DNA of 64,000 nt from a virus, in UHGV virus genome UHGV-0147904, one strand, 5' to 3'. Positions within the stretch are counted from its first letter, which is position 1, and each line of letters opens with the position of its first letter. Below are positions 19,105-21,663 of the stretch, in pieces. A model generated the notes under the pieces. The model did no database searches. It saw only the letters and a list, made by a program, of their open reading frames with translations, and was not told the origin of the DNA. The position numbers and the translations under genes were made by a program.

Positions 19105-19806
19105 TTATTCTGATTCTCGCTCAAAAAATGAGCTGATAAGGGGAAGCCAATCCTCTGACACTTCGCGAGGTCGCGGTTTGCCGTGGAAAAAGATTATTCG
19201 GCAGTCTTTTGGTAATGCCCCATTCCCCCTGGAGTAACGCGCGCTCGCATATTTTGAACCAGGTTCCACAACATCGGCCTTGTAACTTACAAACCATCCT
19301 GGATACAGATCCTGAAATGCTGGTGTATCATCGCCCATAACCTTTCGTAAGAACCCCTGGTCACCCCAGCACTCAGTAGTGACACAACGAGAAATCCAAC
19401 CTTCCGGATCTTGCCAGAATGAACTCCAGATATGCGCTTTAACACTATTTGGTATCCACAGGGCACCGCTGCCACGATATTGTGGATGGTAAAAATCCCT
19501 AAGCATGGTGAAGCTGGTTGGTGGATGCTCTAGGATTTGGCGTATATCACCGGCAATAACCGTGTCCAAATCCAGATAGAACAGATCATCGGTTATATCC
19601 GGTCGGAACAACTCGATTTTCGCCCACCAGCCACGGCACTTTTGCCACTGGTTGATCAATGGGACAACTTTGACGCCAGGTACATGTAAACGCTTCAGGT
19701 CTGTCAGGCAAATAATTTCATAGCCTTTTGGCAGTTGATTAACCAGCCACTGCACATCGGAAGCGTTATAGTCACCACCAGAGCGAAAAACTAAAGCAAT
19801 CTTCAT
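19105..19806 (-). CDS. putative nucleotide-sugar transferase-like protein (233 aa)
   Basis: DxD-like YLDLDTV motif; no closer assignment possible by eye. Confidence 0.5.
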
Positions 19807-20495
19807 GCTGCACCATCACCTTTCACTTTCATCAATGTCAGGTTTCCGCAAAATACGGCACCAGTGTCGATATACTGCTGATTCCAGAATGTCTTCGGGC
19901 TTTTCACCGGAGTGTGACCAAAGATAAAACGATCTGCGCCCGAAATTTCGCCACCAATATCATCCATCGAATCACTGATACGCTCGCGCGCCCAGACAAC
20001 GTTGAAAAGCGGCACCTCCTTACCGAATTGGTATTCATTATCCGGATAGTCGGCATGGGCTATAACGATAGTTTCTTGCCCGGTGTTCAACTCAATGATA
20101 TAGGGCAGACGCTTTACCAGCTCCACCAGCGCCCAGGCTAATATTTCCTGATCAGTGTCCAGCATGAAGAACCATTGTCCGCCATTCATTAGCCAGTTAT
20201 TCACGTTGCCATCTGGACTTAACGCATCAATCATCAGCCGCTCATGGTTCCCCATCACTGCCCTGAACCAGGGCATCTGCAATAGTTCCAGACATTCGAC
20301 ATTTTCAGTACCGCGATCGATAAGGTCGCCGACCGATATCAGTAAATCCTGCGCCGGGTCAAAATCCACACGATGGAGTTCGGACATCAGTCTGGTGTAG
20401 CAACCATGCAGATCACCAACAACCCAGACATTCCTGTATTTGGTACCGTCGATACGGTGATAAATTGTGGGTGCCATCATGTATTCTTCAGCCAT
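19803..20495 (-). CDS. ppp: lambda-type Ser/Thr protein phosphatase (230 aa)
   Basis: Calcineurin-like motifs GDLHGCY, GDLIDRG, GNHE. Confidence 0.85.
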
Positions 20496-21103
20496 TCTTT
20501 AAGAGTCATCTGCGGAATACCTCCCATTTTCCCGCATGAAACAACGTCAATCCGTTCACGCGCAGACTGGAATAACAAAGGCAGGTGACTTAGATTTTTT
20601 GGCGTGCCGCCGGAGTGAACGCGTGGTTCTTGTGTAGCGTCAACGCCCACCAGGGCGACATGTTTGAATCCGATATGGAAAGCCAGGTTCAGAGCGCCAT
20701 ATGCACTATTGCCGCTGGCAATTTCATTCTCATCTTCGCAAAGTCCGAAATGTGCGGACCAGCGCCACGCCCACCACTCGGGAGAATTCGTATTTTTTGG
20801 CTCCATGCCACGTTCAGCCACACGACGGAAGCACAGAACGCCGTCTCTGACTTCACGTTCTTTAACATCGGGTAGTGCCATGCAATAACAAACACCACGG
20901 CGACGGCGGCCACGACCAACGCGCCGCATATTGTCTGGCGATGGATCAAGTGTGAAAAAATAAGAAGCGCGGTTCAGCCAGTCGATGGCCCCATTGACCG
21001 CTATAATCGGCACTCCGCGCGGCGCAACAAAGTTTGCGGCGCTTGGGCCACTGCCGACGATAATAACGCGATCACTGCCTCTAAATTTATTCTTGGGAAA
21101 CAT
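20477..21103 (-). CDS. DUF115/MptE-like Rossmann protein, paralog 2 (208 aa)
   Basis: [10 protein letters not shown]...[10 protein letters not shown]...[26 protein letters not shown]; paralogous to the adjacent gene. Confidence 0.5.
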
Positions 21104-21663
21104 TGAATTGCACTGCTCCTACTTGCATTCAAAATATGTAAATCTGCGTGTTTTTTGCGGGTATCCAGGAACTGCTGTTGCCATTTTGAAATAGAAACCT
21201 GCGTTGGATTCCGTAGGGCTTGAGGGTGCGCGCCATGCCAATGAAGGCCGTTTTGCAGAGAACAGTCATAGCCGACTAATACCACTACTTCAGCCCCTGA
21301 TTCAGCAGCCAGACTGATAGCCTGCGCGCCGCTATTTACCCCTTCCGCCGGTCCACAATATCGCCTGTACTCCAACGAAAATGATTTCGCCGCCGCCAGG
21401 TTGGCTGTCACTTTGCGGAATCTCCCTCCCGGTATGGTGGATCCGTATTGCTTCCACCATGACAAATCACCGGCGTATAAGGCATAAATGTCATCGAACA
21501 TCTGCCAGGAATTGTTAACCGCGATGATTGAACAGCCAGTTTTTTCTATAGCAGCACAGTCCTCACGAGTGAGTGACGGACCGCTACCGACACAAAAAAC
21601 AGTCCTAGTCGCCCTGCGTGGTATGTTCATTCTCAGCTGCAAATTCAGCCTCCAGGCGAGCAT
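21001..21663 (-). CDS. DUF115/MptE-like Rossmann protein, paralog 1 (220 aa)
   Basis: VFCVGSGPSL...IIAVNNSWQMF...GVNSGAQAISLAAESGAEVVVLVGYD. Confidence 0.5.
   Translation of the reverse strand: MLAWRLNLQLRMNIPRRATRTVFCVGSGPSLTREDCAAIEKTGCSIIAVNNSWQMFDDIYALYAGDLSWWKQYGSTIPGGRFRKVTANLAAAKSFSLEYRRYCGPAEGVNSGAQAISLAAESGAEVVVLVGYDCSLQNGLHWHGAHPQALRNPTQVSISKWQQQFLDTRKKHADLHILNASRSSAIQCFPRINLEAVIALLSSAVAQAPQTLLRRAECRL

Follow-up and report, generated by a model that had tools for sequence, protein, structure and literature searches.

A portable gene cassette of phage P1 and many unrelated phages with a possible role in glycosylation

Introduction

P1 is among the most used phages in genetics, and yet one block of its genome has stood under placeholder names for twenty years; which of the proteins encoded there belong together, and what they might do, is the question addressed here. 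The block lies in UHGV virus genome UHGV-0147904, of which a stretch of 64,000 nucleotides (the window) was analyzed. The window is phage P1, and its positions 19105 to 21663 (2,559 bases) are exactly pmgO-pmgP-ppp-pmgQ on the minus strand, with 98.9% identity to phage P1, 99.6% identity to Salmonella phage SJ46, and four open reading frames of 220, 208, 230, and 233 amino acids (aa), the same lengths as in the P1 record. Existing names in the block include “putative morphogenetic function,” the typographical error “norphogenetic protein,” and a doubtful “alpha-2,3-sialyltransferase.” A sequence-only reading of this region had proposed two tandem DUF115/MptE-like paralogs, a lambda-type Ser/Thr phosphatase, and a transferase-like protein with a DxD motif, all in one early transcription unit and joined by a separate GT-B-like protein in a small nucleotide-sugar pathway or a pathway for the modification of protein or DNA.

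Judged by their distribution across genomes, PmgO, PmgP, and PmgQ, together with Dbn, are one portable cassette found in many unrelated phages. We give an even chance to the reading that this is a mobile phage glycosylation cassette whose enzymes would build a short glycan, most probably on Ser or Thr of a virion protein, with host CMP-activated 3-deoxy-D-manno-oct-2-ulosonic acid (CMP-Kdo) as the likely first donor and with Ppp as an inserted passenger. RefSeq and PHROG already give glycosyltransferase-type names to pmgO, pmgQ, and dbn, and bare fold assignments of P1 genes are not new. The searchable literature held nothing on the definition of the cassette (PmgO, PmgP, PmgQ, and Dbn without Ppp), its spread, or its position among head genes, and a literature search found nothing on MptE/DUF115 proteins in phages. 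The observations from which we argue are the folds, the paralogy of PmgO and PmgP, the synteny, and the range of genomes in which ppp and dbn occur.

Results

Distribution of the cassette

The surroundings of PmgP relatives were taken from species-representative genomes, viral contigs, metagenome assemblies, and cultured phages; the loci were scanned with profiles of PmgO, PmgP, and PmgQ and with other P1 proteins, and PmgP sequences more than 85% identical were merged, leaving 32 lineages. Within the cassette, PmgP is both the best conserved and the farthest spread, with homologs in 328 clusters. It is accompanied by PmgQ in 30 of the 32 lineages, the two exceptions being contigs of 1.4 and 3.1 kb, and by PmgO in 25 (the PmgO profile itself recovered 7,668 clusters at an E value of ≤0.001 in a 50%-identity protein library). 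The hosts, which include Enterobacterales, Pseudomonas, Zhongshania, Commensalibacter, Methylophilaceae, Brevundimonas, Ochrobactrum, and Sinomicrobium, are all Gram-negative and comprise Gamma-, Beta-, and Alphaproteobacteria and one Bacteroidota genome. Two kinds of company recur: a protein of ∼190 aa with a sub-threshold match to Nucleotid_trans (GT-A), present in seven lineages, and class I S-adenosylmethionine or FkbM methyltransferases encoded between the pmgP and pmgQ homologs. By family membership, this recurrent company is the vocabulary of glycan assembly.

PmgO and PmgP

The genes pmgO (21001 to 21663, minus strand; 220 aa) and pmgP (20477 to 21103, minus strand; 208 aa) are distant paralogs, each predicted to encode an enzyme of the MptE/DUF115 fold that resembles Maf proteins and GT42 sialyltransferases. 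By BLASTP the two proteins align only over GSGPS...IIAVN near the N terminus (E = 0.003); when family alignments that left out the fused protein P0051 were compared as profiles with hhalign, the probability was 98% and the E value 2.3e-13 over 163 columns, which is nearly full length. On this profile evidence PmgO and PmgP are real and old paralogs. Their scores against PF01973 (MptE-like, formerly DUF115) were 23.7 bits for PmgO and 21.0 bits for PmgP (E = 3.2e-4), both under the gathering cutoff of 34.6, and the cutoff is passed by the homologs P0051 (44.6 bits), P0223 (41.5 bits), and P0242 (43.6 bits); precomputed PF01973 matches also exist on many other PmgO and PmgP homologs. By these matches the two families belong to PF01973, and it is the two P1 sequences alone that fall below threshold. 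The fold is that of the solved PF01973 members, namely the Maf central domain and the MptE HPPK, with Maf as the best fold match, so the tandem DUF115/MptE-like pair of the sequence-only reading is borne out. A single-sequence search with PmgO recovered nothing significant among PDB sequences, and profiles were required; the PDB profile matches were weak (E = 0.15 to 0.8) and fell on Cst sialyltransferases, with the GPSL motif and the NSG...G-D motif both aligned. BFVD returned many uncharacterized phage proteins with the same fold and no other kind.

Conservation within the families points to working enzymes. Invariant residues of PmgP are P20, N37 and G38, D53, G131, N132, and S133, G153 and D155, and H173. 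Both paralogs retain equivalents of the nucleotide-site motifs (GPS, N, D, NSG or GNS, and G-x-D) as well as an invariant histidine farther on (in PmgP, H173; in PmgO, H141/H143 within HWHG); these residues would play the roles of their Cst-II counterparts. Because the nucleotide-site motifs and the invariant histidine are kept, both PmgO and PmgP are expected to be active.

The two genes are also tied together in their layout. The 3′ end of pmgO runs out of frame over the 5′ end of pmgP for 103 nt (21001 to 21103, minus strand), an AGGAG Shine-Dalgarno sequence stands inside pmgO 12 nt before the pmgP ATG, and the codons for the GSGPS motif of PmgP lie within the overlap. Such an overlap, estimated at 32 to 103 nt, was found in 17 of the 18 lineages in which the two genes are adjacent, and in one phage contig PmgO and PmgP are fused into a single 376-aa protein (P0051); other double-domain proteins exist. 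Given this conserved overlap and natural fusion, pmgO and pmgP are probably co-translated, and their products probably act as a physical pair. An alternative start of PmgO is Met12 at 21630, and the last 15 to 20 residues of the P1 protein are unconserved, since homologs end near residue 200.

Several other observations on these families may help in their annotation. The misspelling “norphogenetic protein,” which stems from the original P1 entry, now stands in the RefSeq names of PmgO and PmgP homologs from many genera. PmgO-like domains were also seen fused to a TylF-type methyltransferase domain, of the Pfam family named for macrocin O-methyltransferase (P0312), to Big_1/Big_13 domains (P0231), and to ∼300 aa of conserved C-terminal sequence that lacks a Pfam match (P0217 and P0321), where a GLGDxIYQRAF motif reminded us of heptosyltransferase-type GT-B proteins.

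PmgQ and Dbn

PmgQ (19105 to 19806, minus strand; 233 aa) is predicted to be a GT8-like retaining glycosyltransferase of the GT-A fold. As with PmgO, a search of PDB sequences with the single sequence gave nothing significant; the PmgQ family profile, compared with GT8 structures, matched 6mw5 (Gat1; E = 7.7e-7), 5gvv (E = 0.0096), and glycogenin (E = 0.013). A structural model of PmgQ had a pLDDT of 94.6, and its top five structure matches are all GT8 enzymes (Gat1, 17.0; GlyE, 16.7; glycogenin, 16.6 and 16.3; LgtC, 16.4). The DLD triplet at residues 79 to 81 and the C-terminal FHGxPRP motif at residues 207 to 213 are invariant in the family; PmgQ thereby combines a GT-A fold and a DxD with a C-terminal histidine in a motif like the H-x-G-x-x-K-P-W of GT8 metal binding, and the transferase-like DxD protein of the sequence-only reading can be named more closely as a GT8-like GT-A protein. 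Some Salmonella homologs of PmgQ are named “phosphohydrolase,” an apparent carry-over from the adjoining ppp.

Dbn (27598 to 28596, minus strand; 332 aa), encoded downstream of ban, is the GT-B-like protein that had been linked to the module, and ban and dbn lie 6 kb from pmgO-pmgP-ppp-pmgQ. Its GT4-like character comes from a match to Glycos_transf_1 confined to the C-terminal half (25.0 bits, E = 1.5e-5), just under the gathering cutoff of 26.4; PDB sequences offered no usable match. The link itself holds: in the lytic coliphage EP_H11 (111 kb) the order is PmgO-PmgP-Dbn-PmgQ, and the Dbn homolog standing between the pmgP and pmgQ homologs has 48% identity to P1 Dbn over its full length (E = 4e-107) and scores 24.5 bits against Glycos_transf_1. 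Dbn homologs also lie 3 to 6 kb from the cassette in three further loci (L005, L101, and L120), which represent a Serratia/Buttiauxella chromosomal remnant and another P1-like phage. Dbn is therefore likely the fourth enzyme of the cassette, displaced by 6 kb in P1. The EP_H11 record is annotated solely with “hypothetical protein,” and its PmgP homolog is unannotated, probably owing to the overlap with the PmgO homolog.

Ppp, a passenger in the P1 sublineage

Between pmgP and pmgQ of P1 lies ppp (19803 to 20495, minus strand; 230 aa), a lineage-specific insertion. The sequence-only reading was right about its family: Ppp aligns with lambda phosphatase (PDB 1g5b) over its full length (residues 11 to 229; E = 1.5e-94), with the metal-binding motifs GDLHG, GDLIDRG, and GNHE in place, and scores 59.3 bits against Pfam Metallophos (cutoff, 21.5). 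Beside lambda NinI it is an ordinary member of the family, with no notable difference. Its inclusion in the module does not stand. The gene is present in 5 of the 32 PmgP lineages, all of them P1-like (plasmid prophages), and no non-P1 copy of the cassette has it; four P1-like lineages that lack ppp keep the order pmgM-pmgO-pmgP-pmgQ-pmgR-pmgS. Given this distribution, Ppp is best described as a late insertion into the cassette in one P1 sublineage, a passenger rather than a member of the pathway. One could suppose instead that Ppp works in the pathway, for example by dephosphorylating a sugar-phosphate or phosphoprotein intermediate, as its intact catalytic motifs and its translational coupling on both sides would allow (a 19-nt overlap with pmgP, and a stop codon that overlaps the pmgQ start as ATGA). 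With ppp missing from 27 of the 32 lineages, including the four P1-like ones of otherwise identical order, and with Ppp being a close full-length homolog of a free-standing lambda phosphatase, this is so improbable as to be hardly credible. By its motifs Ppp is an active-looking lambda-type phosphatase with no demonstrable part in the cassette.

Genomic setting

The positions of the cassette in other genomes bear on when it is expressed. In eight lineages, from phage contigs and HK97-like prophages, the cassette is mixed with head genes, identified by Pfam or PHROG profiles: it stands directly after the major head protein gene and before the head-tail adaptor gene, lies between the genes for adaptor and closure, or has the adaptor gene inside it. 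The gaps around these head-embedded copies measure a few dozen bases and leave no room for a promoter of their own, so the cassette genes must be read with the late head operon. Elsewhere the cassette follows the lysis genes and precedes the terminase genes (a lambdoid prophage of Citrobacter rodentium), follows a gene whose order and size alone suggest that it is the portal gene (P2-like elements), or adjoins the remnant of a lysis cassette (degraded chromosomal remnants). The jumbo phage XacN1, in which only a distant PmgP homolog (29% identity) was found, has this gene next to ribonucleotide reductase genes. In EP_H11, just upstream of the cassette (L182, 1475 to 4241), we noted genes for a Pol-beta-like protein (DNA_pol_B_thumb, HHH_8) and an NAD-dependent DNA ligase.

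Two settings outside intact phages associate the same genes with surface proteins. In an integrase-linked island of Pseudescherichia (L091, 2235 to 14873, and likewise L092 to L095), pmgO, pmgP, and pmgQ homologs surround genes for Big_1 proteins, namely a 1,178-aa inverse autotransporter (IAT_beta and seven Big_1 repeats), a 999-aa protein of Big_1 and RCC1 repeats, and a 329-aa Big_1-like protein; from gene content, this island may be an adhesin glycosylation system outside phages. On a Serratia plymuthica chromosome (L005, 8998 to 16782), two PmgO-like genes flank genes for two Big_1 proteins, a lipoxygenase, and two unknown proteins, and a pmgQ-pmgP pair and the Dbn homolog lie a few kilobases off, beside a lysozyme gene and an insertion-sequence-like element.

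Regulation in P1 and neighboring genes

The C1 operator Oppp (formerly Op83; 21804 to 21820, plus strand), mapped from the P1 record, lies between pmgM and pmgN. Its sequence, CATGCACTAATTAATTT, has four mismatches to the operator consensus that was searched, ATTGCTCTAATAAATTT, and so it falls outside a search of the window at ≤3 mismatches, which returned 13 matches where 0.3 were expected by chance, including those at 954 to 970, 16946 to 16962, 32776 to 32792, 36052 to 36068, 51007 to 51023, and 52677 to 52693. The annotated P1 operators OpmgRb and OpmgRa (Op86; 19038 to 19103, with matches at 19038 to 19054 on the plus strand and 19087 to 19103 on the minus strand) are directly downstream of pmgQ, at the start of the next unit (pmgR, pmgS). 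Besides C1-controlled promoters, the P1 record has a late promoter, LPpmgL, upstream of pmgL. A promoter and terminator scan of 18700 to 22900 found promoter-like sites fewer than chance and no convincing terminator inside the block. The description of the genes as an early, C1-controlled unit agrees with the presence of the Oppp operator and is incomplete in that a late promoter is also annotated upstream; judging from these annotations, the pmg block of P1 may be read both early and late, which accounts for the name “putative morphogenetic.”

Upstream of pmgO and outside the cassette is pmgN (21605 to 21760, minus strand; 156 nt in the P1 annotation), a small open reading frame that overlaps the annotated pmgO start by 59 nt and is confined to the P1 sublineage that also carries ppp. 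Its start is likely the GTG at 21760, which stands behind GGGAGA, rather than the GTG at 21802. CRISPR interference and tabulated knockouts score pmgO, pmgP, ppp, pmgQ, and dbn as nonessential for plaque formation (PMC10695390 and its reference 73); pmgN is essential by CRISPR interference and nonessential by knockout in the same paper and reference, an essential score that is odd for a polar knockdown given that every downstream gene is nonessential. PmgM (21827 to 22405) has a sub-threshold match to the VRR-NUC nuclease family (E = 3e-4; 21.3 bits, with a cutoff of 23.8), and PmgL (22408 to 22653) shows by eye a zinc-finger-like CxxC...CxxC pattern. The “morphogenetic” operon is a mosaic of unrelated cargo genes. 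Farther along, pap (16962 to 17468), named “putative acid phosphatase,” matches PF25109, the HAD phosphatase domain of polynucleotide kinase-phosphatase, at 46.3 bits (cutoff, 27.6), which suggests that Pap is a nucleic-acid 3′-phosphatase rather than a general acid phosphatase. A defense or anti-defense role was also considered and was ruled against by PADLOC, in which PmgO, PmgP, Ppp, PmgQ, Dbn, PmgN, and PmgM had no match at an E value of ≤0.01.

Discussion

Proposed function of the cassette

In the pathway that we propose, a CMP-activated ulosonic acid would be the donor for PmgP, and for PmgO where present, UDP-sugars would supply the hexoses that PmgQ and Dbn attach, and in some phages another small GT-A enzyme or a sugar-type methyltransferase would contribute. 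The resulting short glycan would be carried by a molecule that is produced in the course of lytic growth, most probably on virion-protein Ser or Thr. The transferase activities, the donors, the order of steps, and the acceptor are what we infer from the observations above. The Maf/sialyltransferase fold goes with CMP-activated ulosonic acids, no sugar-synthesis genes were seen in the phage loci examined, and CMP-Kdo is, to our knowledge, the only such donor that all of the host taxa should make, through Gram-negative lipopolysaccharide (LPS) synthesis; host CMP-Kdo is for these reasons the likely first donor. CMP-sialic acid is not a known product of Escherichia coli K-12, and the activity implied by the RefSeq name “alpha-2,3-sialyltransferase” is on that account almost certainly not the real one. 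Placement of Kdo on protein Ser/Thr by Maf enzymes has been demonstrated in E. coli (PMC11339370).

As to the acceptor, the least secure step of the proposal, we favor a protein, which in phages would be a virion protein. The argument is a joint one, from the likeness of PmgO and PmgP to Maf, the three best GT8 matches of PmgQ (all of which work on protein-linked glycans), the co-expression with head genes, and the Big_1 neighbors; late co-expression with head genes in many phages points away from the envelope already in place and toward an acceptor that is freshly synthesized during infection. The small modification pathway of the sequence-only reading survives as a glycan-building pathway, which is our best reading, with its link to Dbn intact and Ppp placed outside; of the two targets it had offered, protein is favored indirectly, by context, and DNA modification is without support. 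A fuller statement, that P1, like many other phages infecting Gram-negative bacteria, adds O-linked glycans to its own virions using Maf-like ulosonic-acid transferases, GT8/GT4-like hexosyltransferases, and host CMP-Kdo, is put forward tentatively, and we would sooner expect some part of it to fail than all of it to hold.

Several observations weigh against this proposal. Neither P1 protein of the pair reaches the Pfam cutoff for PF01973, and the single PmgQ sequence has no Pfam match at an E value of ≤1, the GT8 model included. About a fifth of the lineages have PmgP and PmgQ but lack PmgO; PmgP must be able to work alone, so an obligate pair is not general. The copies in P1, EP_H11, and the Sinomicrobium locus have early-type or DNA-metabolism genes as neighbors, not head genes. 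A Big_1 immunoglobulin-like protein was considered as the P1 acceptor and rejected, because a profile made from the island proteins detected no Big_1-like domain in the window and none in ten phage loci. The genes pmgO, pmgP, ppp, and pmgQ are all dispensable for plaque formation (PMC10695390), and in the main text of a paper on the P1 virion proteome neither glycosylation of virion proteins nor the genes discussed here come up, the matches to “glycos” being “transglycosylase” only (PMC9024508).

Alternative explanations

The same enzymes could act on the host envelope instead. The core oligosaccharide of LPS is the P1 receptor, and a cassette that remodels LPS or another envelope glycolipid, with PmgO and PmgP acting like WaaZ, PmgQ like the GT8 enzymes WaaO and WaaJ, and Dbn like the GT4 enzyme WaaG, might alter that core so that superinfecting phages are excluded or fewer progeny are lost on debris. 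The enzyme types do mirror the waa core enzymes, every host is Gram-negative, and the positions in lambdoid and P2-like prophages and degraded remnants, after lysis genes or beside a lysis-cassette remnant, are those of accessory cargo. In E. coli K-12, addition of a third Kdo by WaaZ accompanies truncation of the outer core (PMC6358824). There are also faint WaaZ-family signals, from TIGR04437 on PmgP (E = 0.11) and from a precomputed match of PF27901 (WaaZ_KDO_III) on the fused protein P0051; the hhalign comparison with E. coli K-12 WaaZ was nonetheless weak (probability of 14.0% for PmgO and 15.5% for PmgP), and with TIGR04437 at 11.9 bits where 200 are required, WaaZ was rejected as a direct relative. 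Timing tells further against an envelope target, as genes packed among head genes in eight lineages would be made only late, when cytoplasmic core transferases could alter only new LPS, and as the P1 cassette lies behind C1 operators, repression is expected in lysogens, where masking of the receptor would be most useful. We judge remodeling of LPS to be unlikely, but it is the main rival and a serious one.

Two other explanations were weighed. That PmgO and PmgP are ATP-dependent pyrophosphokinases of the MptE or thiamin-pyrophosphokinase type, which would activate a hydroxyl of a small molecule or sugar for transfer, is compatible with the fold; the weak PDB profile matches, however, are to Cst sialyltransferases at the GPSL and NSG...G-D motifs, and the constant partners are glycosyltransferases and methyltransferases of families common in sugar pathways, which makes this quite improbable. 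Glycosylation of phage DNA as an escape from restriction, known from the T-even phages and from phages that glycosylate 5-hydroxymethylcytosine, has a precedent in phage GT-A and GT-B enzymes that hypermodify DNA, GT8-like folds among them (bioRxiv 10.1101/2023.12.21.572611). DNA methyltransferases are encoded nearby in P1 and in the Citrobacter prophage, and the Sinomicrobium, XacN1, and EP_H11 copies are near DNA-metabolism genes. Most copies, however, lie in head or lysis blocks rather than replication blocks, and no hydroxymethylase or TET-type dioxygenase was recognized in the annotated or Pfam-scanned parts of the loci, although no search was aimed at either. The DNA glycosyltransferases described so far use UDP-sugars (bioRxiv 10.1101/2023.12.21.572611) and are not known to have the Maf/sialyltransferase fold. 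A DNA target is on these grounds very improbable, and glycosylation of a protein remains the reading we prefer.

Relation to known systems and implications

The closest fold to PmgO and PmgP is that of the Maf flagellin glycosyltransferases (Magnetospirillum Maf, PDB 5mu5, and Clostridium botulinum Maf). Maf proteins are multidomain proteins of ∼600 aa (the 5mu5 chain has 632 residues) with large regions beyond the ∼160 residues aligned, whereas PmgO and PmgP are bare domains of 180 to 220 aa, with 16% identity to Maf, that form a diverged, phage-borne pair; Maf O-glycosylates flagellin, and nothing seen here points to flagellin as the target of PmgO and PmgP. To the GT42 enzymes Cst-I and Cst-II of Campylobacter jejuni their sequence match is not significant (E = 0.15 to 0.8). 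PmgQ has 13 to 16% identity to the GT8 enzymes Gat1 (Skp1 glycan), GlyE (PsrP glycan), glycogenin, and LgtC, and is shorter than most members of GT8. As a set, the cassette resembles WaaZ and the waa outer-core enzymes of E. coli, which likewise comprise a Kdo-transferase-like enzyme, a GT8 enzyme, and a GT4-like enzyme, and the likely donor, CMP-Kdo, is the same. Virion glycosylation in mycobacteriophages and in chlorovirus PBCV-1 depends on other enzyme families in other hosts; for P1 the case for it is argued from gene position.

We read the cassette as a phage-encoded glycosylation system drawn from an enzyme family not yet characterized in phages. Its genes are accessory, and the comparative result is clean, while function and target are inferred. 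The definition of the cassette already allows current RefSeq product names to be corrected. As far as we know and the searched literature shows, O-glycosylation of the virion, if true, would be the first such system for phages of Gram-negative hosts, and Kdo on a virion protein, if true, would be the first natural modification of a protein with Kdo. If LPS were the target, the cassette would represent a new kind of receptor remodeling during lytic growth; if the target is the virion, the modification would bear on phage stability, on immune recognition in phage therapy, and on adsorption.

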